The position numbers and the translations under genes were made by a program. A stretch of 64,000 nucleotides of DNA from Patescibacteria group bacterium (GTDB lineage Bacteria; Patescibacteriota; Patescibacteriia; SG8-24): contig JAYEJB010000059.1 of assembly GCA_034716415.1 (NCBI GenBank), positions 68-64,067 of the forward strand, given 5' to 3'. Shown in pieces: positions 3,001 to 37,252 of this stretch (within the stretch, counting starts at the first letter, position 1; each line of letters opens with the position of its first letter). A model generated the notes under the pieces. It searched no databases and was not told the origin of the DNA. It was given only the letters and a program-made list of their open reading frames with translations.

Positions 3001-3171
3001 AATGAGTGTCGATTACAGCCGCCTTAGGAGCGGTCGTGGATAAAAAACTCCGATCCCCAAAGAACCGGCGGTGAATATAGGCGGAGCGGAGATTGTTGTC
3101 AAATGGGGGTGGGTGGGGTGAGTAGACACAAGACCCAAGACACAAGTTTTTAAAAAATCCTTTCCCCCCGC

Positions 3172-3256
3172 TCTCCCCTTGTCATTGCGAGGAGCGGAGC
3201 GGCAATCCCGGCGGGATTGCTTCGTCGGCGGCGGTCTCCTCGCAATGACAAGGGAA
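3172..3256. repeat. GTCATTGCGAG...CTCGCAATGAC hairpin repeat, copy A of 4
   Basis: Perfect long inverted repeat CCTTGTCATTGCGAGGAG..GGCAATCCCGGCGGGATTGC..CTCCTCGCAATGACAAGG; family members at 16626, 17390, 37150. Confidence 0.85.
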
Positions 3257-3290
3257 TGGTGGGAAAAACAGGAAAAGAATAGAGGTCAAG

Positions 3291-4417: not shown

Positions 4418-4484
4418 GTATATATAACCGCAGACTTTGTCTACCTGAAATATATCAGGTGCAGGTCATACGGTCGATATCAAT

Positions 4485-4520
4485 GAAAAACCAGACATCT
4501 GATAGATGTCTGGTTTTTCA
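4485..4520. terminator. bidirectional intrinsic terminator hairpin
   Basis: AAAAACCAGACATC-TGATA-GATGTCTGGTTTTT: 10-bp perfect stem with A-run 5' and T-run 3'; lies 3' of the 1019-aa gene. Confidence 0.7.
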
Positions 4521-4635
4521 TGGCTCAACACCGTGAACAACGTTAGAACCATAATTCAACAGAGTGAAGAATATATTTACATCCCAGATTTGAGGGAATA
4601 CGCGATGGTTTAGTTTTACCCTACCCCGCGTTACA

Positions 4636-7600
4636 CTATTTCTCTTCGACAATATCCTCAAATTTCCAGAATATACTGCTTCCTTCGCGAACCAAATCAT
4701 CAATAAGCGTATAGGTGGCCTTTTTTGTTTCCGAAGTATTGTAAAGGGTTCTTAAAGCTTCGACCCATTCGTCATCATACATGAAAGGCATACGCATTTT
4801 TTTACCGCGAACACCACCCTCAAGTAAAAACAGACGGGCAATTTCCAGAGTATCCGACGGACTCGCTTCGGCAAGTTTATCAATGTTTTTTACCAAAGCG
4901 TAATCCCAATCCAATGCACCTTGCGTTTTGCTCAAGGTTTCTTTCACTTTTTCGGCAAGCCATTTAGGGGCAAAAAGATTTTTCTCAAAATTAATCCAGA
5001 AACCAAAAGACTCAAAAATTTTCGAATCCGTATGATTTTCAAGTACCCATTCCCATAATTTGACAAGTCTTTCTCTGCTTTCCGTGTCTTTACTCAATTG
5101 CTCGTTTGCGCGCGCGTTATCACCCGATACGAACATTCTGCCAATAAAACTGATCAAATCAGCTTGTCTTTCGACATCTTTAGCCCAAAACTTTTTAAAA
5201 AGCTCGTCATCAAAACCAAATCTTTTGTGATAAACGATAAAAGCCAATGCGACATGAACCGCAATGCCTTCGTCGGGGTCTTTAAAATATCGACGATTTG
5301 AATCCTCATCGCCCGTTAAATCAAGACCGCGTTCATACAATTTCTGAAATTCGGGATCAAAGAAAATTTCCTCGTAAAGATTGTTGGCCAGATATCCTTC
5401 CCATGAGGCGAGATATAGATGTTGATTATTGCTGTCGGTGGGGAATATTTGGGGTAAAAGTCCATGAATCCAATCTTTATCGCGGAAGTAGAAAGACGGC
5501 AGATAATGACCGAACATGAACATCAAAGCGCGCGTGTTTTCTTCTTTCAAAACCGTTTCGTAAACCCCTTTGACCTCATTTTTGATTTTTACACTATCCT
5601 CTTTTGAGAATTGTTTACCGTCCTGATAAACGAATAAAACAAAAGCCTGGAAAGCCCGTCCTCGAACGGTGTTTATGGCAATGGTAAACGGATCGGTAAC
5701 TTGATACTCTTCTTTGTCTCCCGCCAAGCGCGTCTTAGAAACGGCGGTCTCCAATTCTTCGTCTTTCGGCTCGGGATCAGGTGATGAAAGCAGATACTCG
5801 ATTATATCGAATAGTTTGTCCCTATATTTATCAAAATCAATAACGGGTTGTCCTTCATTTTCATTCAACAATTCTTGTAAGACATCGGTCATTGAAGAGT
5901 GCACACCCGACCAGCTCGCAAGCCACGAGTCATAAGTTTCTCGCTCACGCTTTTCATAATCAAATGGCTTTTCTTTGCCCGATTTAACAACTGTAACCAT
6001 AATCTCGATTAAGTTATCCCAATCCAAGTCTTTAGCAACCGTTTTATCGACCTTCATGGCCTCTTGAATTCCCCTGAAAAATGAGTAAGTGTAATGTTCA
6101 TCGAGCACATCTCTATCGAAAAACAGGCTTGAGTTTGCCAGATAATCCTGCAAACGCTTGGCTATATCAGTACGTAATTGTGAACCGACTCCCTCAGCAT
6201 TAAGGGGATTAAGAAAATCATCATGAGTGTTTTGTACATGCAATACATCGGGTTTCCATTCATTTTTCAATTTTCCAATAATGTCGACGATTGTAAGTTT
6301 ATTAAACTCGTCTTGCGATATAGCTCCTCTCGGTGATACCGTTCCGCCTCGCATTGTTCCGATTGAGGTTTCGGGAATAAATTCGGAATCGCATTTGTTG
6401 CCGAAAATTTTCTCGCATTTATTCTTTTCATCCGCGGAAAGAAATTTGCAAATTGAAGACAAAATCTGCCATCCGTCACGTTTGTGCCACTGTTCTTCTT
6501 TTTTGTCTTCAAGCGATTTTCCGAAATATTGAAGTACTTTAGCGATAAATTCGCGTTGATAATCCGAATCGAAAACACCAAAAGACTTTTTTAAGGCTTT
6601 TTTATATTCGGTTCCCGACTCGATTTCATAATAATTTTTACCCGCTTCCATCACCTCAAACAATCTTGAAAACGCTTGCTTCAACCTATCTTGAAAGGCG
6701 TTCGGGCAAAGACTCATAACGTAAAGTTGCAATCGCCACATTGAACGACATTGAGGCAAGGTTTGAAAGCATTTATCGTAAATGAAAATCGCGGAATCAG
6801 TGTTTTGACAATTACTGCCGATAAGATTTTGAGCCAGTTTTTTAATACTTGCGGCCAATTCTTTGACATTTTCTCTATCTGATCTAAGGCGTTCGTTTTT
6901 CAAATCGAGCGTGAAAAAATCGACATCATAGAAAGAAAACATATCTTCAATCTCGAAAACGGCTTTTTCGTCGGATCTTTTATCACCCAATTTGACGATC
7001 TCGGATATTGTCAGACAGGCAAGTTCAAGTGCTTTTTCGGCATTTTCATCGTTAACGTTAACCAGATATTCAAAGATCTTGGTGTAAGATAAATCTTTAA
7101 AGTAGAATGGATTATCGGCAAGATAACCGTGCGAATTTTTATTGAAGGCCTCTTTCGTTTTTACCGCAAACACAGCTTTCGCCAGAATCAATAAACCGTC
7201 ATATTTTTTATTCTTTGCCAAAGTCGCAAACATTTTTTCATATTCAGAGCCCCAATCGTTGAAAATACTCATCAGCTGAACCCATTTGTCGTCACGAATT
7301 TTAACAACCATCCTTGCCAATTCTTCCGCAGGTAATGAACCGCAAATATGCAAAAATTGATCGACAACTTCGGGATTGAAATTATCTTTTGAAATTTCAA
7401 CTGAAAGCATACTATCAACCACTTCTTTCGGCTTCTTATCGGCAACCTTAACGAGATAATTCAATTCGGGAGTGCGATAACCGTATCGTGTGGGATCTTC
7501 GGATTTTTCTTTTATGACATTCAGAAAACCGTTTTGCCATAGAAAATCGAGCCAATTCTCATCGGCTTTTGTGTAAAAGTATTGCTTTGCATCGAGATTC

Positions 7601-7695
7601 TCTGAAATCAAATTTGACACAGCTTGAATCTGACTACCATCAGGCGCTTTTGACAATATTTCATCTATTCTTTTATGTAATTCAATCTGAGTCAT
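4636..7695 (-). CDS. large (1019 aa) predicted all-alpha hypothetical protein, last gene of AT-rich island operon
   Basis: Long uninterrupted ORF in AT-rich DNA; no Walker A, DExH or other catalytic motif seen; Lys/Glu/Asp/Phe/Tyr-rich helical composition. Confidence 0.7.
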   Translation of the reverse strand: MTQIELHKRIDEILSKAPDGSQIQAVSNLISENLDAKQYFYTKADENWLDFLWQNGFLNVIKEKSEDPTRYGYRTPELNYLVKVADKKPKEVVDSMLSVEISKDNFNPEVVDQFLHICGSLPAEELARMVVKIRDDKWVQLMSIFNDWGSEYEKMFATLAKNKKYDGLLILAKAVFAVKTKEAFNKNSHGYLADNPFYFKDLSYTKIFEYLVNVNDENAEKALELACLTISEIVKLGDKRSDEKAVFEIEDMFSFYDVDFFTLDLKNERLRSDRENVKELAASIKKLAQNLIGSNCQNTDSAIFIYDKCFQTLPQCRSMWRLQLYVMSLCPNAFQDRLKQAFSRLFEVMEAGKNYYEIESGTEYKKALKKSFGVFDSDYQREFIAKVLQYFGKSLEDKKEEQWHKRDGWQILSSICKFLSADEKNKCEKIFGNKCDSEFIPETSIGTMRGGTVSPRGAISQDEFNKLTIVDIIGKLKNEWKPDVLHVQNTHDDFLNPLNAEGVGSQLRTDIAKRLQDYLANSSLFFDRDVLDEHYTYSFFRGIQEAMKVDKTVAKDLDWDNLIEIMVTVVKSGKEKPFDYEKRERETYDSWLASWSGVHSSMTDVLQELLNENEGQPVIDFDKYRDKLFDIIEYLLSSPDPEPKDEELETAVSKTRLAGDKEEYQVTDPFTIAINTVRGRAFQAFVLFVYQDGKQFSKEDSVKIKNEVKGVYETVLKEENTRALMFMFGHYLPSFYFRDKDWIHGLLPQIFPTDSNNQHLYLASWEGYLANNLYEEIFFDPEFQKLYERGLDLTGDEDSNRRYFKDPDEGIAVHVALAFIVYHKRFGFDDELFKKFWAKDVERQADLISFIGRMFVSGDNARANEQLSKDTESRERLVKLWEWVLENHTDSKIFESFGFWINFEKNLFAPKWLAEKVKETLSKTQGALDWDYALVKNIDKLAEASPSDTLEIARLFLLEGGVRGKKMRMPFMYDDEWVEALRTLYNTSETKKATYTLIDDLVREGSSIFWKFEDIVEEK

Positions 7696-7697
7696 AA

Positions 7698-8240
7698 TTA
7701 TTTATTTTTGAATTTAAAATATTTTCCCAAATGCAGAATAAAACCAGTACATAGTTTATCAAAATCTTCTTCACTGATAACTTTAAGAGATTTGTTATCA
7801 GGATCTAGTAAAGTATTAGCATGTCCAATTGCCGAATCTTTAAAGTGTGCAAAATCATTAAAAAAATCTTTATAATTACGTATTGTCTCACACACCTGCT
7901 TTGCTTCATCTGAATCACTTCTTTTGGGTACGCATTTCAGAAATTTTAAGCAATTAGCTTCGAAATGCCCGTCAACCAACTCTCGAATTGATCCAGAACA
8001 ATGCTCTTTCCAAAATTTATCGTTTGATTTGGTATCCTCACTTTTAAATATGCTTTGGGCATTAAAGATAATATCTTCCGGTTTTACGTTTTTTTTATAA
8101 TTACCCATAATCCAGACCAAATGAATGTTAACGTTAACAATTTCAATCACCGATTTTGGTAGATTAACAACATCGTATTCCGCACCATTTGTGGAAATAC
8201 TTTTTTGTTCCGCTAATATTGGATCAAGGGTTTTACTCAT
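7698..8240 (-). CDS. 180-aa hypothetical protein (island operon gene 3)
   Basis: ORF; its start ATG overlaps the Vsr stop as ATGA, and its stop lies 2 nt before the 1019-aa start; no family recognised. Confidence 0.6.
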   Translation of the reverse strand: MSKTLDPILAEQKSISTNGAEYDVVNLPKSVIEIVNVNIHLVWIMGNYKKNVKPEDIIFNAQSIFKSEDTKSNDKFWKEHCSGSIRELVDGHFEANCLKFLKCVPKRSDSDEAKQVCETIRNYKDFFNDFAHFKDSAIGHANTLLDPDNKSLKVISEEDFDKLCTGFILHLGKYFKFKNK

Positions 8241-8650
8241 TTATTTTCTTGCAACTTATTTAGTATTTTTTCCACGGTTTTATCAAATTTTTTCTTTATT
8301 TCATGCTCCCAAATTCTGATAACCGTCCAGCCTTTATTTTTGTAATACCGAGTGACTTCTTTGTCCCGCTCTTTGTTGCGAGCCATCTTGGCCTCCCAGA
8401 ATTCTCTGCGGGTTTCTGGCATTGAACCGTGCTCTTTGCAACCGTGCCAAAAGCAAGAATCCACGAATATTACGGTTTTCAATTTCGCCAGTACGATATC
8501 GGGTTTTCCAAAATGTTTGGTCGAATTTTTGCGGTATCGATAACCGGCTTTCCATAACTCTTTACGCAAGGCGATCTCGATTTTACTGTCCTTATTTCGG
8601 ACTTTGGACATTATTTCGCTTCGTTTTTGTTTGGAAAACTTATCGGCCAT
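8237..8650 (-). CDS. vsr: very-short-patch-repair (Vsr)-like endonuclease
   Basis: 137 aa; GKPDIVLAKLKTVIFVDSCFWHGC matches the Vsr catalytic core (GKPDIV..AIFVHGCFWHGH); C-terminal W..IRIWEHE region. Confidence 0.85.
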   Translation of the reverse strand: MADKFSKQKRSEIMSKVRNKDSKIEIALRKELWKAGYRYRKNSTKHFGKPDIVLAKLKTVIFVDSCFWHGCKEHGSMPETRREFWEAKMARNKERDKEVTRYYKNKGWTVIRIWEHEIKKKFDKTVEKILNKLQENK

Positions 8651-8653
8651 AAT

Positions 8654-8893
8654 TTATTTCGTAAAGCGAACTTGCAAATTAAGTTTGATGAACAAGTCAC
8701 CGTTTTCCTCATAAACGGTTCCGTATCCGTGACGAGTTGCACTCGGCGACTCCATTCTGGTGTGATTGAACAAATAATCCCTGAAAGCTTCGGCATTGTA
8801 CAAGTGATAACAAACCACCTCGCCGTCTTCGCGAACCACAATAACTCCTCCGTGAGCGCGCAAATTACCATCCCAAGCACTTGCGGGTACCAT
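8654..8893 (-). CDS. 79-aa hypothetical protein (island operon gene 1)
   Basis: ORF stop lies 3 nt upstream of the Vsr ATG; intermediate GC; no family recognised. Confidence 0.4.
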   Translation of the reverse strand: MVPASAWDGNLRAHGGVIVVREDGEVVCYHLYNAEAFRDYLFNHTRMESPSATRHGYGTVYEENGDLFIKLNLQVRFTK

Positions 8894-8901
8894 ATAAAAA
8901 T

Positions 8902-8966
8902 GGGGTCAGGTCTTGTATTTTAACATTTTTGATATCTGGTAATGATACTATGTTAGACTTGACCCC
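8902..8966. repeat. Inverted repeat GGGGTCAGGTCT / AGACTTGACCCC bracketing a possible TGnTAAAAT -10 for the island operon; third direct copy at 9234-9246
   Basis: 13-bp imperfect inverted repeat separated by ~40 bp immediately 5' of the 79-aa start; GGGGTCAGGTCTT recurs at 9234. Confidence 0.5.
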
Positions 8967-9040
8967 GAAGCACATTCCCGCGTCAGCAAAATGCTCGCCA
9001 AGGAGCGGGAGAGGGCAAGAGTCAAGATGTGACCCCTATT

Positions 9041-9205
9041 TTAGTGAAGTATTGCCCAAAGACCAATAGCGACTGGCCATAAAAAAACGATATAAAGAAA
9101 AGTAAAAATATTTTCTGGAAACGGTGCGTCAATATATCCGACCCGCCAGAAAAATACTCCTATTGCAAGATAGCTTATTGCGATTAAAAATATTTTTATC
9201 TTCAT
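9041..9205 (-). CDS. 54-aa hydrophobic (two-helix) small ORF, below the ORF-track length cutoff
   Basis: My own translation: MKIKIFLIAISYLAIGVFFWRVGYIDAPFPENIFTFLYIVFLWPVAIGLWAILH; AT-rich; flanked by GGGGTCAGGTCT direct repeats. Confidence 0.25.
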   Translation of the reverse strand: MKIKIFLIAISYLAIGVFFWRVGYIDAPFPENIFTFLYIVFLWPVAIGLWAILH

Positions 9206-9410
9206 CACTCACTTTATTAAATTTTGCTTGGGGGGGGTCAGGTCTTTAATTGTCGGATTTTCGACCTTAAAATCTAGCCAAAATGGTACTCACTGCAATT
9301 TTTGAGACCCGACTCCACACGATAAACAATTTAGCATAGCTACAACAAAAAACCACCACAAAGTGATGGTTTTTTGACTGAACGCATATGGGTCGCCACA
9401 CACGTTCACT

Positions 9411-9444
9411 CATGGCTCCGAGGTGACGATTCGAACCGTTCTCC
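9411..9444 (-). other. degenerate copy of the tRNA-Asn 3' end (putative att-site remnant)
   Basis: TGGCTCCGAGG is identical to the acceptor/CCA region of tRNA-Asn at 16360-16370, followed by a T-arm-like GATTCGAAC; does not fold into a full tRNA. Confidence 0.5.
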
Positions 9445-9484
9445 TGAAATTCAGAACCTAGCTCTAAGAATCTCGTGGTTCGCC

Positions 9485-12400
9485 TTAACCAACCGGCATG
9501 AACAGCCGGTAGAGAAAGGTCCAAGCGTTGAGGGTGACATACCTCTCGGAGAGGGAGAGTGGAGCGGTCCGGGCGGGCTTTATCTTACCGTCCGTGACGC
9601 GCACGCCTCTCGCCTTCATCTCGGCGACATCGAGACCCTTGGCCTTCACGAACTCCTCGGTCATGGGCGTCGGGATGCTGCGACGGAGGTGCTCCGTGCG
9701 ACCGTCGTGGGTGACCTCGATGTCGATGCCCGTGCCGCATTCCCAGCAGGAGCCGATGTCGGTCAAGGTGAACTGTAGGACCTTGTAGTCGGTGTTGACC
9801 TCCGTGGAGAGATTCTCGTAGTCGGCAACGAAACCTTCCGGCGGTTCGACCGTGACCGTGACGCCCCAGTCCCCTTCCGAGTCGAAGACGAACGGGTAGA
9901 GTTCCGTGGTGTCATCCCACTCGATGTACTCCGGTTCGATGACGTAGAGAACCGAGCCATCGTGCTTGGATGTCTTGGCCGGGACGGAAGTGCCGTCCGC
10001 GCGGACGATGACGTTGAGGCGCTTATCGACGGTGTCGCCGTTGGCGAGAATGCCGGAGTGGACGCCGGCCACGACCGTGGTCTGCGGGTCTTCGGAGACA
10101 AGGAGATATTCACCCGGATCGAGGGTCATGAGAGCGTGACCGTCGGATCCGGTGGTGCCGGTGCCGTCAGGGATACAGGTCGAGAGGACGGTGGAGTAGT
10201 CGTGCGGATTGTATCCGATGGTGTCGGCGCAGGAACTGGAGATTTTGGTGTATGCGTTGACTGTGGCACCGACCACGGGCTCCTTGGTGCTGCCAGGTTC
10301 GTTCCCCTGCCCCACGGTGTGACGGCGAAAGAGCACGGAGAGCTCAGCGGAGGACAAGTCGATGGTAATCTCCAGCGTCTGTGTAACTTCCTCGTTCCCG
10401 GCGTTGTCCGTGGCGCCAAAGTGGAGGGTATGGGTGCCTTCTTCGGTGAGTTCGATGGAGCCCGAGTACTCGCTCCAATTGAGGCCGCCGTCGGTGGAGT
10501 ACAGGAGTGAGGCGACGCCGGTGCCTGAAGGGCCGTCGTCGGCTGTGAGGACCACTGTGACCGGGGTGACGTACGTGACGCCGTCAGGGGCGAGAGTGCC
10601 CGTAACCTCGGCGATAGTGACCGGTGCGGTGGTATCGACCACTCCCGGGGCGATGCTGACGTCCGTGGTGCCGGAAACGGCATGGACGACCGCCTCGTCA
10701 GGCTCGACTGACTGGGCTTCAAGAATCGTTGAGGTGTATATCCCCGAGGCCGGATCGATGTACCGGGCATAAATGTCGTATGAGTCGGAGGTATCGGGAA
10801 GCTGCGCGGCGATGTCCGGATTCGCTGCCAGGAACTCGGCGTTGTCGTGCGCGGAGACCACGTGGCGGCACCCTTCATTCCCCTCCGGCGGGAAGAAGAT
10901 CCATTCCGGAGCACCTTGGTTGTCGCCATTCATGATGACGTCATCGATCTCCGCCTCATACTCGCCGGTTTCGTAGTTCATGCCGACGTGCCGCCCGTCA
11001 TCGCAGTACACATGGAGGTCGAGGTCGGGCTGCACAGAACCTTCAACAAACGGGGCATACCTGATCTGCTCGAACGGCCAAGCTGAACGGAACGGAGCAT
11101 CATCGATAAATCTAGCTAAAGCACCGAACACGACGAATGTAATCACCATGATGCCGATCACAACACCGATTACCATCTTCAGACGTTTAATACGTCCCTT
11201 CCCTTGTTCAGAGCGATTCTTTCTCGTTAAGACGACGATTGCGACAGCTGACAGCAAAACCACTAAAATCGCGAGTTCGATAATCAACAACCCAAGAACA
11301 TAGCCCGACGGTTCAACGCGATAGACGTCCTCCACGACAAGCGTACCCTCCTCCTCTGTACCCAGCACCACATTGCCGTCGGGGTTAATGATCAATGTCA
11401 AACCCTGTAAAATTGCAAGCGGCCTTAAGACTTCCCCGACAACAACGCCCGGCAAATTCAATGCGAACCAAGCTGCATCCATCTCACCGATAACAGCCTC
11501 AATCTCCAGTTGGCCATCAACGGCCCTCAGATCATTGGCCTTGATCGTCACGAGATGTGAAAAATCATTATAGCTCTCATGTATCGTGGGACTAAGAAGA
11601 CCGTCATTGGCTGTCATCAACGGATCGACAATACCGTTGCCGGGTATCGTCACTACGTCTGACTCATCGTTCACGTAATACACGACAAGATGATTATCAT
11701 CGATTCCGGGCAACGATGTGTCCCAGTTACCGTATTCTTCGTTACTGGTCCTTGATTCAATCAGCAGATATTCCGATTCAGCCTGCGAAAGATCTAACCG
11801 AAGGACTTCGTCTCCGAAGGAAGACGAGGAAAGCGATTCGACCCAAACATTACTGGGGTAATTCCCTGATCCGTATCGCGATTCAGTCAACCAACCTAAA
11901 TTTATCCTGCTATAAGCGGTCATCGAGGCGGGATTCGATCCACCATCATTCTTACTGGCAGTCGCCATGACACCCCAAGCCCTGACATCACCACGCCTAT
12001 ACAGATCGGGCAGTAAATCTGAATCGGGCGACATAAGTGGCTTCATCACGTGCCCTAACTCATGTACCCATACACCCAGCGGTTCGGTTTCAGCGACTGT
12101 AATGAAATGACTGTCCGGATCATGGATGACGGCAGCAAACGAATGAATCAGGTCGGTCTGATTCTCATGCTCTTTACCGTCGCCGGCATGCACCAACAGG
12201 ACGGCATCAACGGTGGTCGTATCAATACCAGATACCGCTAAAGTATCTGATACAAGAGCCAGTCTTGATGATGGGCTATTTACACCATAATCATTTAAGT
12301 AGCCGGGTAAGTCATACCAATCGCCCGCATTATCCATTATTAATGGTTCGATATTGACTGCACCGAACGAGTTCTCCCGAAAATAATCATTCACGCAGAG

Positions 12401-14080
12401 CAGAAGATCCTCATAGTATTCCCTCCCATGTCCGTCAGCGTAGGTCTTCTCCTCGATGAGCTTGCAGGGCTGGGCGGTGATAGGTCCGGATTCGTGCTGG
12501 ACGTCAGCGAGATCAGCCAGGATGACCGCGACCGTGATGATCTGCGCATCGACTGTCTTCCACGGTTCGAAAGCGACGTTGTCGGAGACGGTATCACCGA
12601 GACCGTCCGGATTGAGCATGCCGTGGTAGGGACCTGATGCGTCACCCCACCAATTGTCGGTCGCGGTGAGGGTGCCGGACGGAGAGTTGTTCAGGGCGCC
12701 GTAATGGACGTTGTCGTGGATACTGCCATCCGTGACCGTGGCGTTCCCACCGGCCATGGCGTAACCGTAGAGGTTGTGATCGATCTCGGTGCGGGAGACG
12801 GTCGCCGTGCCGCCGTATTGGAGGATGCCGTACTCGAGGGAGTCATGGACATGCGAATCGGAGATCAAGAGGGAGATGTTCGTGCCATCCAGGGTGACGC
12901 CGCCGCGACAGGGTCCGGGTGAGCAGACGACTCCGGCGTAACGGATGTCGACGTAATTGATGGTTCCCGAGGTGTTCGGTCCGAAGACGATACCGTCCCA
13001 GTCTCCCGGGGCGGGGGTGGTGACGCTACCGTCGCTGTTCGTATCACCTCCGACCGTGTCGTCATGGATGGAGGTGAAGACGACCGGTGCGGCTGAGGTA
13101 CCGTTCACGACGAGGGTGCCGTCGTTCTGCAAGGTGCTGAATTGTTCGCCCTTGACGACAGTGCCGGGATTGATGGCGAGAGTGTGATATTGCGGAATCG
13201 TAAAACGGGTGCCACCGGGGTGCGTAGCGTCCTCTATTATATATGGAAGGTCCGCGCTCCAGGTCTGGTCGTGGGTGAGGAAACCGTACATCAGGAGTCC
13301 GTTCCGGGCACTGCCGGTGCTGATGTTACCGGAAGCCGAGACGAGGTCCACCCCGCCGTTGATACGAGCCGAGGCGCTGGCGTTCGCGGTGAAGGTGTTG
13401 TTCGTGAGCGTCAGGGTACCTTCCCAAGCGTTGGCGTTCACGCCGTAATAGTCGTTGTCGTGGATGATGTTGTCGGCAAGGGTCGCGGTGCCATGGGCGA
13501 GAGAGAAACCGTACGGCTGATGATCGATCTCGGTCCCGGCGACGGTCACCAGGCCGTCGTACTGGACAATGCCGTATGTCAGAGAATCATGGACGCGTCC
13601 GGAGATGATGTCGATCGGACCGGTGACGATGGTGATGCCGCCACGACAGATTCCGGAACAGGGCGCGCCGGCGTAGCTGATATCGGCGTGGACAAGGGTG
13701 CTCTCTGCACTGCCGGAATCGAAGAGGATGCCGTTCCAGCTTCCGGGAGTCGCGGAGAGAGAGGTGAAGACCGCCGGGGCGGACTCGGTACCGTTGACGT
13801 TGAGACTGCCTTCGACGGTGAGGCCGGTGCCGGTCGCAAACTCGACGGTGACGCCGGATTCGATGGTCAGGGTCGCTCCAGCCGGAACGATGGCGTCGGA
13901 GTCGACCGTGTACGGACTGCTGGCGGCGTTCCAGACCGTGCCGTCGGGGATGGTGCCGGAGACGGGTGTGGCTGCCCGTGCCGAAAAGACGGGCAATAAC
14001 AAGAACAACAGCAGAGACGTTGCAGTCGAAAAGATAAACTTGCGACGGATGAAGGATGATATGTCTTTTACCATATACAT
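9485..14080 (-). CDS. giant (1531 aa) surface protein: signal peptide, two duplicated right-handed beta-helix modules, M6 (InhA/PrtV)-like HExxH metallopeptidase region, 2 TM helices, Ig-like/Big-type domains
   Basis: N-terminal hydrophobic signal; two ~150-aa paralogous blocks (..CRGG.T..G..I....V.DS..YGI.QY.G..TV..TEIDH..YG..); VHELGHVM then AWGVMATAS..AYSRINLGWL resembling the M6 family; hydrophobic segments LGLLIIELAILVVLL and MVIGVVIGIMVITFVVF. Confidence 0.8.
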   Translation of the reverse strand: MYMVKDISSFIRRKFIFSTATSLLLFLLLPVFSARAATPVSGTIPDGTVWNAASSPYTVDSDAIVPAGATLTIESGVTVEFATGTGLTVEGSLNVNGTESAPAVFTSLSATPGSWNGILFDSGSAESTLVHADISYAGAPCSGICRGGITIVTGPIDIISGRVHDSLTYGIVQYDGLVTVAGTEIDHQPYGFSLAHGTATLADNIIHDNDYYGVNANAWEGTLTLTNNTFTANASASARINGGVDLVSASGNISTGSARNGLLMYGFLTHDQTWSADLPYIIEDATHPGGTRFTIPQYHTLAINPGTVVKGEQFSTLQNDGTLVVNGTSAAPVVFTSIHDDTVGGDTNSDGSVTTPAPGDWDGIVFGPNTSGTINYVDIRYAGVVCSPGPCRGGVTLDGTNISLLISDSHVHDSLEYGILQYGGTATVSRTEIDHNLYGYAMAGGNATVTDGSIHDNVHYGALNNSPSGTLTATDNWWGDASGPYHGMLNPDGLGDTVSDNVAFEPWKTVDAQIITVAVILADLADVQHESGPITAQPCKLIEEKTYADGHGREYYEDLLLCVNDYFRENSFGAVNIEPLIMDNAGDWYDLPGYLNDYGVNSPSSRLALVSDTLAVSGIDTTTVDAVLLVHAGDGKEHENQTDLIHSFAAVIHDPDSHFITVAETEPLGVWVHELGHVMKPLMSPDSDLLPDLYRRGDVRAWGVMATASKNDGGSNPASMTAYSRINLGWLTESRYGSGNYPSNVWVESLSSSSFGDEVLRLDLSQAESEYLLIESRTSNEEYGNWDTSLPGIDDNHLVVYYVNDESDVVTIPGNGIVDPLMTANDGLLSPTIHESYNDFSHLVTIKANDLRAVDGQLEIEAVIGEMDAAWFALNLPGVVVGEVLRPLAILQGLTLIINPDGNVVLGTEEEGTLVVEDVYRVEPSGYVLGLLIIELAILVVLLSAVAIVVLTRKNRSEQGKGRIKRLKMVIGVVIGIMVITFVVFGALARFIDDAPFRSAWPFEQIRYAPFVEGSVQPDLDLHVYCDDGRHVGMNYETGEYEAEIDDVIMNGDNQGAPEWIFFPPEGNEGCRHVVSAHDNAEFLAANPDIAAQLPDTSDSYDIYARYIDPASGIYTSTILEAQSVEPDEAVVHAVSGTTDVSIAPGVVDTTAPVTIAEVTGTLAPDGVTYVTPVTVVLTADDGPSGTGVASLLYSTDGGLNWSEYSGSIELTEEGTHTLHFGATDNAGNEEVTQTLEITIDLSSAELSVLFRRHTVGQGNEPGSTKEPVVGATVNAYTKISSSCADTIGYNPHDYSTVLSTCIPDGTGTTGSDGHALMTLDPGEYLLVSEDPQTTVVAGVHSGILANGDTVDKRLNVIVRADGTSVPAKTSKHDGSVLYVIEPEYIEWDDTTELYPFVFDSEGDWGVTVTVEPPEGFVADYENLSTEVNTDYKVLQFTLTDIGSCWECGTGIDIEVTHDGRTEHLRRSIPTPMTEEFVKAKGLDVAEMKARGVRVTDGKIKPARTAPLSLSERYVTLNAWTFLYRLFMPVG

Positions 14081-14360
14081 GGATGTTGAGACCTAAACCT
14101 GCATTGATTGTATCACAGCCGCTCTAGATCAACCGAGATGCGGCTCCACCATGAACATAAGTGATATGCTCTGTGGAATTATTGGCTGACTACCGTGCGT
14201 GGGACTCGAACCGTCAAATAAGTCTAAAATTTCAGATTCCTATCCGAGTGCCGATTTCTGCATAAGATATGACGAGTGCAATCGCCTGCGAAACGAGGCC
14301 TGAAAATATGCAAACTGCTAATGCTGCCCCCCCCCCGACACTTTCGAAAGGAAGACCAAG

Positions 14361-14714
14361 TTGTCTGACTCCCTGGTTGATATCCCTCTTGTCCATGCGC
14401 TTTATGATACATACGCTTGCTGGCACCAGCTTGCACTTAAGTTCCCGAAGTCGCAGCGCTACACCCTCGGCCGGAGGTGCGATGACTATATGCTCTCTGT
14501 ACTGGAACTCGTCCTTGAAGCGGCTACGGCCGGCGAACCGAAGAAAAAAGAATCGGCTATCGTCGCCGCAAGCGCCAAGCTCGACACACTTAAGCTGTTG
14601 GTCCGGCTCTCCAAGGACTGTAAGTGTATCTCACACCGGCACTACCAGGCCATGGAGACCCGCCTTTACCGCATCGGCAGGATGACGGGCGGCTGGCTCA
14701 AGTCGATGCGATAG
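14361..14714 (+). CDS. four-helix-bundle protein (23S rRNA intervening-sequence-type protein family)
   Basis: 117 aa; TLGRRCDDYMLSVLELVLEA and LKLLVRLSKD..ISHRHYQAMETRLYRIGRM pattern typical of the TIGR02436 four-helix-bundle family. Confidence 0.65.
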   Translation: MSDSLVDIPLVHALYDTYACWHQLALKFPKSQRYTLGRRCDDYMLSVLELVLEAATAGEPKKKESAIVAASAKLDTLKLLVRLSKDCKCISHRHYQAMETRLYRIGRMTGGWLKSMR

Positions 14715-14751
14715 GCAAAAAACGCCGACATTGGCGTTCTTTGCGCGGGCA

Positions 14752-14890
14752 GGCACTCCCGGGCAGAGGGCACCGAGTAGTCCGAGTTGTCGTTACTGTG
14801 CCAGTTGGCGTTCAAATTCACCTTGCCGGAGTCGGTGTTGCGGTTCACGATCGGCACGTTCTGCCACGACTCATCGTCGTTCTCGGGGAC
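14752..14890 (-). pseudogene. duplicated fragment of the C-terminal module (plus 3' flank) of the 15214-16053 gene
   Basis: ~135-bp near-duplicate of 15222-15352 at DNA level (CTCCCGGGCAGAGGGCACCGAG...CTTGCCGGAGTCGGTGT..CACGATCGGCAC); encodes WQNVPIVNRNTDSGKVNLNANWHS vs WQCVPIVYRDTDSGKVHLDAYWHS; the containing ORF overlaps the convergent 14361-14714 gene. Confidence 0.4.
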
Positions 14891-15213
14891 CATCAGCATT
14901 ACGCCGCCCCCTTCCGGACCACCGGACACAGACGCGTCCATGCCCTGTATTTTATGCGGAATCCACTGGCCTATGGCCCCGATTCCAAGGGAAGGCGCGG
15001 AGTACCCGTCCATCGCGCCGCGCGCTCCGCAGATCCGTGAACATACGGACTCTGGCGGCATATGCGATAGCGAGGGATTTCGGCGACGCATACCCGTAAA
15101 TATGCGTTCATGAGCCTATTCTCCAATAGTGAGTATACGAAAAAAGAACCCGGAGGGCCAAGGTCCAAAGACCAAGGCCATCCGAGTTCAAAGGTTCCGA
15201 GTGCCGAGTTCCG

Positions 15214-16053
15214 CTACTCCCGGGCAGAGGGCACCGAGCAGTGCGAGACGTCGTAACTGTGCCAGTAGGCGTCCAAATGCACCTTGCCGGAGTCGGTGTC
15301 GCGGTACACGATCGGCACGCACTGCCACGACCCAGCGTCGTACTCGGGGACATTGATCTCGTACCCGGCACAGAACCACGCGCACCATTCATTATAATCG
15401 ATAGCGCGCACCCGGTCGGGCACGAGCCAGGCGAGCACGAGGCCTTCGTCGGCGAGCGACCTTGATCTGCGCACGGACGTGACGGAGTTGCGCTTGCGGT
15501 GAGCGGACAGGTCGGGGATTATGATCCACTCGACCACTGGCATGAGGCTACCGTTGCCGTTCAGGAGCCGGAGCCTGTCCACATTTTCGCCTCGGTACGG
15601 GTGCTCTCCGGATAGCAGCAAGTCCCATCGCCAGGACTTGTCGTGGGCGTGTTTCACGGCATCGGCGTGGGCTTCGAAGGTCCTGATGACCCCATCGCGC
15701 CCCTTGCCGAAACGAATGCGGAAGCTACGGTAGGCGTCCCGACCTTCCGGCCACTCGAGAGCGGTCTCGGCGAGACGCGTACAGACGGCCTCGATATCCC
15801 CGATGTGGGGATGACCGCTGTCTTTCCAGAAGCCGTTCATCTCGCGCAGGGCGGCAAGCTGCTCTTCGACCGTCTGCTTGAAGGGGTTGATGTTCACCAG
15901 GCCGAACACCTGGAGAAGCGCCTCGACCGCTCTGTCCGCGCCGCCCTCCTTGCGGATGGCGGTAGCCAGTTCGGCCGTGAACTTCGGATGCCCGAGAAGT
16001 ACCCGGACGGTCTCGAAACCGCGAGAAAACGTGTCATCATTCAGGCGTGCCAT
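15214..16053 (-). CDS. hypothetical protein (~280 aa from MARLNDD), Cys/Trp-containing C-terminal module
   Basis: ORF; start chosen at the first Met after the upstream spacer; no family recognised. Confidence 0.55.
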   Translation of the reverse strand: MARLNDDTFSRGFETVRVLLGHPKFTAELATAIRKEGGADRAVEALLQVFGLVNINPFKQTVEEQLAALREMNGFWKDSGHPHIGDIEAVCTRLAETALEWPEGRDAYRSFRIRFGKGRDGVIRTFEAHADAVKHAHDKSWRWDLLLSGEHPYRGENVDRLRLLNGNGSLMPVVEWIIIPDLSAHRKRNSVTSVRRSRSLADEGLVLAWLVPDRVRAIDYNEWCAWFCAGYEINVPEYDAGSWQCVPIVYRDTDSGKVHLDAYWHSYDVSHCSVPSARE

Positions 16054-16359
16054 GTGGCATACCTCCTTTTCATGCCGTCGGCTTACCCTTGTCGCGCCCC
16101 ATGCACGATGTCGGGCATACCCGTTGAAAACGGCGTACTGGAGCCGGCGGCTCGGCCACAGTACGTCGTTTTCAACGACAGTGGAATTGGAATGTTCAAC
16201 AGTAGACAATAGCATGAAAATACTCGACTGTCAAGAACACGTGAAGCAAAACGCAGGACTTTCATCCCGCGTCTGCATATCTCCAGTTTCAGCTGTTCCG
16301 GTCTTCCTGAACCCTGCACTCGCAGGGGTCGCGTACCGGTCCACCTGAAAAAATTGTTG

Positions 16360-16434
16360 GTGGCTCCGAGGGCGAGATTCGAACTCGCGACCAATTGGTT
16401 AACAGCCAACTGCTCTACCACTGAGCTACCTCGG
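16360..16434 (-). tRNA. tRNA-Asn (anticodon GTT)
   Basis: Minus-strand read TCCGAGGTAGCTCAGTGGTAGAGCAGTTGGCTGTTAACCAATTGGTCGCGAGTTCGAATCTCGCCCTCGGAGCCA folds as a cloverleaf; anticodon loop CTGTTAA; CCA encoded. Confidence 0.85.
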
Positions 16435-16625
16435 AATATCTTGTTTTTTACTTAGCATGGCTACGATCGGCCACGGCCACGCTTATCACGACTTGTCCCC
16501 CGAAGCTTTACTTGTCCTCCATAGCTTTAGCGAAGGAGGAGCGAAGGGGGAAGCTACCTCGGAATATGCTCTGGCGAAAGGAATATTAACATAATAACCC
16601 GATTTTGCAAGAGCTGGAATGAGAC

Positions 16626-16746
16626 TGTTGCACAGCCTCCTTTGTCATTATGAGGGAGCGGAGCGACCGCGGCAATCCCGTTGGTTTAAGTCCGAACACG
16701 GGATTGCTTCGACCTTCGGTCTCGCAATGACAAAGGAGGCTGTGCA
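16626..16746. repeat. GTCATTGCGAG-family hairpin repeat, copy B (extended outer stem TTGCACAGCCTCCTTTGTCATTATGAGGG...CTCGCAATGACAAAGGAGGCTGTGCAA)
   Basis: Inverted repeat read directly; shares GGCAATCCCG..CGGGATTGCTTCG core with copies A, C, D. Confidence 0.85.
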
Positions 16747-16891
16747 ACGATCTCAAAATAGACATCCGGCAGTCCGCGTGGGATACTGCCCCTACGGCCG
16801 TCAGGCCTATTTTTTGAAGCTCATTCCACAAGGAGGTCTTTTGATAGACGGAAAACAGATATGGCAGGCTATCCTGAAGGACAACGCCTGT

Positions 16892-17389: not shown

Positions 17390-17487
17390 TCGTCATTGCG
17401 AGACCGGAAGCCACGGTAATCCCGTCGTCACGAGCCGAAATGACGGGATTGCTTCGTCGGCTGCGGCCTCCTCGCAATGACAAAGAA
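17390..17487. repeat. GTCATTGCGAG-family hairpin repeat, copy C
   Basis: CGTCATTGCGAGACCGG..GGTAATCCCGTCG..GACGGGATTGCTTCGTCGGCTGCGGCCTCCTCGCAATGACAAAG. Confidence 0.85.
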
Positions 17488-17518
17488 GGGTGTCTCCGCC
17501 CCTTCTCACCTTCTCGCT

Positions 17519-37149: not shown

Positions 37150-37252
37150 TTTTTGTCATTGCGAGAAGGCCACAGCCGACGAAACAATCCCGTCGGCTTA
37201 AGCCTAAACCACGAGATTACTTCGGCCTTCGGCCTCGCAATGACAAAAAAGG
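37150..37252. repeat. GTCATTGCGAG-family hairpin repeat, copy D (most diverged)
   Basis: TTTGTCATTGCGAGAAGG..CAATCCCGTCGG..CTTCGGCCTTCGGCCTCGCAATGACAAAAAAGG. Confidence 0.8.

Follow-up and report, generated by a model that had tools for sequence, protein, structure and literature searches.

A 64,000-nt stretch covering almost the entire 64,555-nt contig JAYEJB010000059.1, from the metagenome-assembled genome (locus tags U9Q03_) of a Patescibacteria group bacterium (the window; all positions refer to it unless a related locus is named) contains an intact tRNA-Asn gene and, 6.9 kb downstream of its 3' end, a short remnant which repeats that end. The locus raises the question of how the tail of a tRNA gene came to lie so far from the gene itself, and what the DNA between the two copies is. 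This DNA carries the gene of a predicted surface protein of 1531 aa and a diversity-generating retroelement (DGR) cassette. The remnant (9413-9444, minus strand) is probably the displaced original tail of tRNA-Asn, that is, the far-end junction left by the site-specific integration of a single element. The original prediction, made from the letters of the window, was that the direct repeat marks DNA integrated at tRNA-Asn; the contiguity seen in a related genome and the recombinase-bearing elements and scars found at the same tRNA in relatives agree with it.

The direct repeat of the tRNA-Asn 3' end

The intact tRNA-Asn (anticodon GTT, CCA encoded) is located at 16361-16435 on the minus strand (ARAGORN; Rfam RF00005, 75.4 bits). 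A direct repeat has its proximal copy in the last 11 nt of this gene (16361-16371), and 9413-9436 repeats the tRNA 3' end at 16361-16384. The 11-mer TGGCTCCGAGG occurs exactly at two places only in the window, 9413-9423 and 16361-16371; the second had been placed at 16360-16370, one base off, while its identity as the acceptor/CCA segment was correct. The T-loop 9-mer GATTCGAAC is also exact in both copies (9428-9436 and 16376-16384), at an equal spacing of 4 nt from the 11-mer, and these 4 nt, the 3' strand of the T-stem, differ (TGAC vs GCGA on the plus strand). The T-arm-like sequence next to the 11-mer, previously described as diverged, is therefore identical in its T-loop and differs in the intervening 4 nt. 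Read on the tRNA strand, the remnant is GG-AGAACG-GTTCGAATC-GTCA-CCTCGGAGCCA: the acceptor strand with GCCA (CCTCGGAGCCA, 9423 to 9413) and the T-loop (GTTCGAATC, 9436 to 9428) are exact relative to tRNA-Asn, and both T-stem strands mismatch it and are not complementary to each other. A doubt attached to the original prediction was that the 11-mer match might be non-specific. By itself it is not significant, as 1.4 matches are expected in the window with one mismatch allowed; for the combined pattern TGGCTCCGAGGNNNNGATTCGAAC with up to three mismatches 0.01 matches are expected per window, and no shuffled sequence contained two.

The remnant lies downstream of the tRNA-Asn 3' end and both copies have the same orientation, which the ARAGORN and Rfam placement and the sequence itself bear out. 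Its predicted inability to fold into a tRNA is also borne out: ARAGORN finds no tRNA at the remnant, Rfam gives no tRNA match there even when 151 nt are searched with E up to 10, and the folding energy has a z-score of -0.05 against shuffled sequences. A full-length decayed tRNA was considered on account of a weak MAFFT similarity further upstream and rejected, since 9380-9530 has no Rfam tRNA match (E ≤ 10) and shuffled sequences fold just as well.

Comparison with an uninterrupted locus

In the window, the CCA of the remnant is directly followed by a 41-nt imperfect palindrome (9372-9412, minus strand; delimited by blastn against the locus L086) and then by an intrinsic-terminator-like hairpin with a T-run (9347-9375, minus strand; from sequence and fold). 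Together the two hairpins have a fold z-score of -4.7, and 9347-9412 has an ordinary GC content. L086 is a related contig of the Candidate Phyla Radiation (CPR; JGI Ga0315275_10008816), at some distance from the organism of the window (52% amino acid identity for DnaG, 79% nucleotide identity for rpoD). Its intact tRNA-Asn runs directly into TGAGTGAACGTGTGTGGCGACCCACATGCGTTCAGTCAAAA, and blastn aligns L086 9290-9341, comprising the last 11 nt of the tRNA and the 41-nt flank, with window positions 9423 to 9372 at 51 of 52 nt (E 7e-22). The hairpin alone (window 9372-9412, L086 9301-9341) is identical at 40 of 41 positions, and the sole difference turns a G.T pair into G-C, so that pairing is kept. 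The tRNA-Asn of L086 is 83% identical to the intact one of the window over 77 nt. In the three-way alignment the L086 tRNA body corresponds to the intact tRNA of the window and the L086 flank to that of the remnant; the flank of the intact tRNA-Asn in the window (CCAACAATTTTTT...) is unrelated to L086. At the position of the terminator behind the 41-nt hairpin, L086 carries a completely different hairpin.

Because tRNA-Asn and the 41-nt flank are contiguous in L086 and 6.9 kb apart in the window, 9424-16360 reads, relative to L086, as an insertion within the last 11 nt of the tRNA-Asn gene with duplication of these 11 nt, and the L086 arrangement reads as the uninterrupted (empty) site. A search of related genomes for an empty tRNA-Asn site, as proposed with the original prediction, thus yielded one, in a single distant genome. 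No empty site of the same species was found because, by sequence comparison, the organism has no close relative in any collection searched. An exact-protein look-up returned no identical RpoD, the closest RpoD in species-representative genomes is 62-72% identical, the closest DnaG in JGI metagenomes does not exceed 64% (72% in a partial alignment of residues 4-383), and the best relative of a widespread 349-aa CPR protein is at 80%. The synteny around the 349-aa gene in relatives does not extend to a tRNA. Viral contigs contained no remnant, tRNA tail, hairpin or predicted joined attachment site (...GGTTCGAATCGTCACCTCGGAGCCACCAACAATTTTTTCAGG...), nor a protein of 1019 aa that is encoded further downstream in the window.

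tRNA-Asn as an integration site in related genomes

The order tRNA-Ser ... dnaG-rpoD-tRNA-Asn is kept in more than 20 related CPR loci, and the content after tRNA-Asn varies. None of the genes of the inserted block is present downstream of tRNA-Asn in any related locus fetched, and this includes homologues of the 1531-aa protein. In at least five relatives a large serine recombinase gene adjoins tRNA-Asn on the downstream side, in antisense, and ends inside the tRNA (L091 13187-14797, L138 10138-11775, L128 5950-7668, L119 13089-14633 and L092 11866-12528). The last ~13 codons of these genes (...WLRGWDSNPRPIG and stop) are the antisense of the tRNA-Asn from the T-arm up to the anticodon loop. 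The Resolvase, Recombinase and Zn_ribbon_recom domains are confirmed in L091, L138, L128 and L119; the gene of L092 is cut at the contig end and is supported by tblastn. L126 contains only a C-terminal vestige of such a gene (5091-5369, 34 aa matched), and L153 has one more recombinase gene of this kind, at a locus where no tRNA-Asn was detected. In L093 (13596-13662) and L106 (13965-14140), exact copies of the tRNA-Asn tail (20 nt and 22 nt) and a third, partial one are located 100-250 nt downstream of the intact tRNA. These look like scars of excised or deleted elements.

Judging from these loci, integrative elements of this CPR clade have repeatedly used the site downstream of rpoD-tRNA-Asn as a landing pad. 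The window shares with the elements of L091, L138, L128, L119 and L092 the chromosomal site (tRNA-Asn behind dnaG-rpoD) and the placement of the element on the 3' side of the tRNA. It differs from them in that their recombinase gene extends in antisense into the tRNA, up to the anticodon loop, whereas the window has neither such a gene nor a detectable vestige, and in that its junction lies in the last 11 nt of the tRNA and not in the 3' half. Integrases that target tRNA genes are usually tyrosine recombinases. A literature search on serine recombinases at tRNA-Asn in Patescibacteria gave nothing relevant, and the recombinase family which overlaps tRNA-Asn may merit a study of its own.

Proposed integration and the absence of a recombinase

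The element would have carried an attachment site of the form ...GGTTCGAATCGTCA-CCTCGGAGCCA-CCAACAATTTTTT..., which would recombine with a chromosomal site consisting of the last 11 nt of the tRNA-Asn gene (CCTCGGAGCCA); before the insertion, the empty site would have read ...GAGTTCGAATCTCGCCCTCGGAGCCATGAGTGAACGTGTGTGGCG.... The crossover would lie inside the 11-nt core. The tRNA would be regenerated from its own T-arm and the element's copy of the 11 nt, and the original 11 nt would be displaced 6,948 bp downstream together with the native flank (the 41-nt hairpin and the terminator). The T-loop-like 9-mer beside the remnant would belong to an arm of the element which mimics the tRNA, and would not be decayed tRNA; such mimicry would explain why the T-stem strands of the remnant mismatch while the T-loop and the last 11 nt are exact. 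This pattern of identity argues against the simple decay of a duplicated tRNA end, and against a target-site duplication. The recombinase would have been lost after the integration.

In the sizeable open reading frames (ORFs) of 2.7-17.3 kb, Pfam, NCBIfam and PADLOC detected no domain of an integrase, excisionase or transposase, in line with the original prediction of no integrase or excisionase. A vestige of a recombinase beside the tRNA or the remnant was sought by tblastn with seven recombinase sequences from relatives (five full-length genes and two fragments), which returned only the trivial antisense reading of the tRNA. A hidden Markov model of recombinase C-termini (the 30 residues before WLRG) matched neither near 16.3 kb nor near 9.4 kb. 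A recombinase pseudogene would not fit into the inserted block because the 1531-aa gene (4.6 kb) and the DGR cassette (2.1 kb) fill it, leaving gaps of ~60, 145, 280 and 325 nt, the last within the cassette. Read from the sequence, the block ends have no terminal inverted repeats. The element has decayed since its arrival, in part visibly and in part presumably: the recombinase is gone, the reverse transcriptase (RT) of the DGR is lost and the 1531-aa gene stands in its place. Decay had been foreseen in the original prediction, and a DGR without RT and a restriction-modification (RM) module without methylase and with a truncated endonuclease are in keeping with it.

Genomic islands at tRNA 3' ends are known from P4-type and other tyrosine-integrase islands, and K. 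P. Williams reportedly classified the integration sublocations within tRNA genes in 2002. The window resembles these islands in the flanking direct repeat of the tRNA end, in the same orientation and on the 3' side, in the regenerated tRNA, in the accessory cargo (a surface protein and a hypervariable protein system) and in the variability of the site among relatives. Unlike them, the block has no integrase or excisionase, an exact core of just 11 bp and no compositional signature, and the host is a Patescibacteria (CPR) bacterium. To our knowledge, few tRNA-integrated islands have been described for Patescibacteria, and the mobile elements of the CPR are, as far as we know, poorly described. 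The window therefore offers a clean sequence-level case of site-specific integration at a tRNA gene in an uncultured CPR bacterium. It is an ordinary, textbook event in a little-studied lineage, to which the RT-less DGR cargo adds detail, and it does not change current concepts.

Several points weigh against a single site-specific integration. With neither a recombinase nor a vestige of one, the mechanism rests on anatomy and analogy. The GC content of the block is that of the genome (0.574 vs 0.56), so that it is not compositionally distinct. The DGR family is not bound to tRNA-Asn, since the homologous DGR of the relative L165 is located between rpoC and yebC/ruvC. The 11-bp core is short beside those of many tRNA-targeting islands, and the uninterrupted configuration is known from one distant genome and not from a conspecific strain. 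Finally, the 41-nt flank is 98% conserved, compared with 83% for tRNA-Asn and 79% for rpoD, which is odd for vertically inherited intergenic DNA and fits a conserved end of a mobile element equally well. The palindrome is thus either a functional element of the native DNA or the conserved end of a mobile element; in the latter case, the AT-rich segment which follows it would be an earlier insertion at the same tRNA.

Alternative explanations and further candidate junctions

This last possibility is developed in the alternative that survives best, a tandem array. It is conceivable, though we regard it with reserve, that elements integrated at tRNA-Asn two or three times in succession and so built the whole 11.8 kb from 16360 to ~4520, with every new arrival displacing its predecessors outward. 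The 41-nt hairpin and its terminator would then be the conserved tRNA-proximal end of the AT-rich element, the native flank would be the terminator at 4484-4520, and a site at 14183-14225 would divide a DGR element from an element carrying the 1531-aa gene. Horizontal spread of the hairpin is suggested by its 98% identity between genomes with 79% rpoD identity, and the AT-rich cargo is 90% identical in DNA to the relatives L166 and L167. The homology of this cargo to L166 ends at 8893 and 4636, however, and not at the proposed junctions, and the terminators behind the hairpin differ wholly between L086 and the window, for which a conserved site in native DNA is the better fit.

Concerning the far edge of the AT-rich segment, 4520-4552 (minus strand) is a possible third, strongly decayed tRNA-tail-like site, a weak candidate (GGTTCTAACGTTGTTCACGGTGTTGAGCCA followed by TGA). 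It has GAGCCATGA in common with the remnant 9413-9444, including GAGCCA/TGA and TCAC, and the terminator hairpin 4484-4520 follows it directly as TGAAAAA-hairpin-TTTTTCA, as in the native tRNA-Asn flank of L093. Its alignment score of 113, against 80 ± 11 in shuffles, corresponds to P = 0.008, a significance obtained post hoc; in a search of the whole window it ranks fifth under one of three scoring schemes and falls outside the top eight under the other two. The original prediction allowed for one or two successive integrations. One is upheld by the comparison with L086; a second, for the AT-rich island, finds weak support in the 4520-4552 repeat (P ~0.008, with post hoc scoring).

Concerning the division of the block, a T-arm-like element (GACGGTTCGAGTCCCACG...AGCCA, with a perfect GGTTCGAGTCC) is located at 14183-14225 on the minus strand, in the 280-nt gap where the DGR RT breaks off. 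A 14-mer in it recurs exactly in L086 (9468-9481), ~170 nt after the L086 tRNA, and 23 of 28 nt agree by eye when the upstream CTTATTT is included. Behind this piece the L086 sequence has no acceptor or CCA part. The alignment of 14183-14225 with the remnant gives P = 0.044 against shuffles, again post hoc, and the element has no Rfam match. It is conceivably a second and more decayed tRNA-tail junction; like 4520-4552, it is unremarkable in the whole-window search under two of the three scoring schemes. The T-arm-like sequence CTTATTTnnCnGTTCGAGTCCCACG is common to window 14183-14225 and L086 9456-9483, and in both genomes it is followed by a promoter-like TGATACAAT and a gene (the 1531-aa gene in the window, enolase in L086). 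The tandem array and the single insertion agree on the identity of the remnant.

An insertion or rearrangement that is not site-specific, by transposition or illegitimate recombination, with the 11-bp repeat as a target-site duplication or microhomology and no tRNA-directed recombinase involved, is unlikely. The exact repeat is indeed just 11 bp, no recombinase is present, and the far-side recQ-p85-349aa block is not beside tRNA-Asn in relatives, which makes the region a rearrangement breakpoint. A target duplication does not, however, predict an additional exact 9-nt T-loop at an equal 4-nt spacing; there are neither terminal inverted repeats nor a transposase, and in relatives tRNA-Asn is demonstrably targeted by recombinases. 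That there was no insertion, and that the remnant is a tRNA-like motif of the 1531-aa gene's 3' untranslated region, present by chance or with a function (e.g. in processing or stability), would suit its position 41-72 nt past the stop codon and ahead of hairpin and terminator, and is nevertheless very improbable, as the remnant is unfolded (z-score -0.05) and matches no RNA family, the chance expectation is 0.01, and the contiguity of its flank with a real tRNA-Asn in L086 contradicts it.

Cargo of the inserted block

Returning to the single integrated element, its cargo had been described as a 1531-aa M6-like protein, a four-helix-bundle protein and a gene with a duplicated C-terminal fragment. 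The genes stand; that the latter two belong to a DGR, as its accessory protein Avd and its template and variable repeats, had been missed. The prototype of the DGRs is mtd-avd-TR-brt of the Bordetella phage BPP-1, and DGRs were reportedly found to be abundant in the CPR by Paul et al. in 2017.

The DGR target gene (15214-16053, minus strand) encodes 279 aa as annotated (U9Q03_04885), with the frame open up to 16215. Its product belongs to a CPR-restricted family of ~137 proteins of 265-280 aa without a Pfam domain. In DGR targets the VR would be expected within a ligand-binding fold of the C-type-lectin-like or Ig-like kind; the predicted structure of the 279-aa protein is confident (pLDDT 86.9) and has no significant PDB match. 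The variable repeat (VR; 15216-15351, minus strand) forms the last 45 codons of this gene, and the template repeat (TR; 14755-14890, minus strand) is 136 nt long with 34 adenines, eight AAC codons and one AAT codon. TR and VR differ at 15 positions, 14 of which are TR adenines (14 of 34 adenines vs 1 of 102 other positions, Fisher P = 4e-9), and at Asn codons AAC of the TR, the VR encodes Tyr, Cys, Asp, His and Val. Avd, the accessory four-helix-bundle protein, is encoded on the plus strand at 14361-14714 (Pfam bAvd PF22296, 57.6 bits with a cut-off of 40; NCBIfam DivGenRetAVD NF033474, 73.4 bits, just under the cut-off of 80). It is 49% identical to the Avd of L165, and its strand is opposite to that of the TR, as in the complete DGR of L165. 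There, the TR comes after a target homologue of 63% identity, and behind it stand Avd, in opposite orientation, and an RVT_1 reverse transcriptase of 350 aa.

The adenine-specific TR/VR differences, the VR at the C-terminus of the target and the avd gene are as in other DGRs, and gene order and strands match those of L165. Unlike DGRs, the cassette of the window has no RT, either at the locus or across the 64 kb: the window has no YxDD-containing frame of at least 150 aa except one in the surface protein gene, and tblastn with the L165 RT gave nothing below E ~1. DNA homology to L165 and a further relative, L164, ends at ~14379, and a possible protein-level trace ends by ~14260. By comparison with L165, the RT appears to have been lost from the cassette. 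As it is absent from the locus and from the window, the cassette would be either dead or served in trans by an RT elsewhere.

A paralogue of the target (U9Q03_05150, P0161; 52% identical) is encoded on another contig of the same genome, and its C-terminus differs from the TR of the window at non-adenine positions too. The genome thus probably has a second DGR locus, and an RT is possibly located there. A more speculative proposal, which we consider rather unlikely as a whole, is that rpoD-tRNA-Asn is a dedicated landing pad for elements whose large serine recombinase ends in the tRNA, that the 41-nt hairpin is perhaps a functional recombination or processing site, and that the RT-less DGR is perhaps diversified in trans by the RT of the second locus. 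In L164, the closest relative of this DGR (target 63% identical), the RT is in pieces (L164 1-222, 4321-4539 and 4685-4891), with residues 15-90 and 253-321 after Avd and one more C-terminal piece at the contig start. Among DGRs of this family, RTs may often be lost or broken. The 5' leader of the target gene in the window contains a 25-nt inverted repeat (16122-16177), which follows a good TTGACA-17-TATTGT promoter. Homology to the DNA of L164 starts at 16176, the promoter-proximal edge of this hairpin, so that the hairpin is covered.

The 1531-aa predicted surface protein is encoded at 9485-14080 on the minus strand (Pfam PF13229 and PF19077, NCBIfam NF047446; TIGR03296 below cut-off). It contains beta-helix repeats, an M6-metalloprotease-like region, a transmembrane stretch and an OmpL47/Big_13 domain. 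Its gene is the distal cargo of the block and occupies the position expected for the DGR RT. The GC content of the middle of the gene (11001-12500, the M6-protease-like region) is 0.49, compared with 0.61-0.62 at both ends, a contrast that suggests a mosaic origin.

The AT-rich segment beyond the remnant

The remnant had been placed exactly at the boundary between an AT-rich island and the block described above. The AT-rich segment is real (GC 0.386 for 4550-9348 vs ~0.56 elsewhere), but it does not directly abut the remnant, as the hairpin and terminator (9347-9412) lie between them. Its genes are all on the minus strand. The first is a C-terminal 77-aa fragment of an HpaII-type restriction endonuclease (8654-8893; Pfam PF09561, profile positions 283-359 of 359, E 9e-33), of which the first 282 of 359 profile positions are lost. 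It is followed by the very-short-patch repair endonuclease Vsr (8237-8650; Pfam PF03852, PADLOC Vsr), with 89.5% DNA identity to L166. Vsr is the usual companion of a C5-cytosine methylase; the AT-rich segment contains no methylase gene. The main cargo is a pair of genes at 4636-8240 for proteins of 180 aa (7698-8240) and 1019 aa (4636-7695), with 89.9% DNA identity to L166 and L167 and no Pfam, PADLOC or NCBIfam match. The 1019-aa protein has at least 366 homologues, mostly in the CPR, and some of these have 1180-1200 aa, the length expected of a fusion of the two genes.

L166 contains the intact version of this region: HTH_17, a C5-methylase, R.HpaII (358 aa), Vsr, a 200-aa gene, a 1019-aa gene (90% amino acid identity) and more genes. 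Its DNA identity to the window is 89.5-89.9% over 3.7 kb, with exact end points at 8893 and the stop codon (4636). Because this identity is far above that of any housekeeping gene of the organism, the AT-rich segment appears to be a separate, recent horizontal acquisition that was later truncated. Compared with a type II RM system of the HpaII type (CCGG) with Vsr, the Vsr and the endonuclease C-terminus are homologous and in canonical order; unlike the intact system of L166, that of the window has no methylase, and its endonuclease is missing the N-terminal portion ahead of profile position 283. With both deleted, the RM system is predicted to be non-functional. On the truncated side, a 31-nt direct repeat (GGGGTCAGGTCTT..., 77% identical; 8902-8932 and 9234-9264) surrounds 332 nt of AT-rich DNA, in which an ORF of 54 codons (~9040-9205, minus strand) resembles a membrane protein gene. 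The left repeat copy is at most 10 nt from the truncation point of the HpaII endonuclease.

Genes corresponding to the pair (~200 and ~1015 aa) are found in L166 (6131-9795), L168 (7387-11042) and L169 (5189-8841). They follow different RM systems in L166 and L168, these systems being preceded by HTH_17 and DUF5659, and are located among housekeeping genes in L169. On this distribution the pair behaves as a mobile module, probably related to defence, and is a candidate for a defence or accessory module that has yet to be characterised. The combination of a hypervariable-protein system, a giant surface protein and, beside them, a broken RM module suits an organism which is under phage pressure and lives through contact with other cells.

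Other repeats around the variable region

Palindromic repeats resembling repetitive extragenic palindromes or miniature inverted-repeat transposable elements, built on CGGGATTGCTTCG...CTCGCAATGACA, are found in intergenic positions at 3167-3263, 16620-16755, 17392-17493 and 37154-37245. Their 12-mer occurs seven times, with 0.43 occurrences expected. The variable region as a whole is bracketed by the copy at 3.2 kb on one side and those at 16.7 and 17.4 kb on the other.

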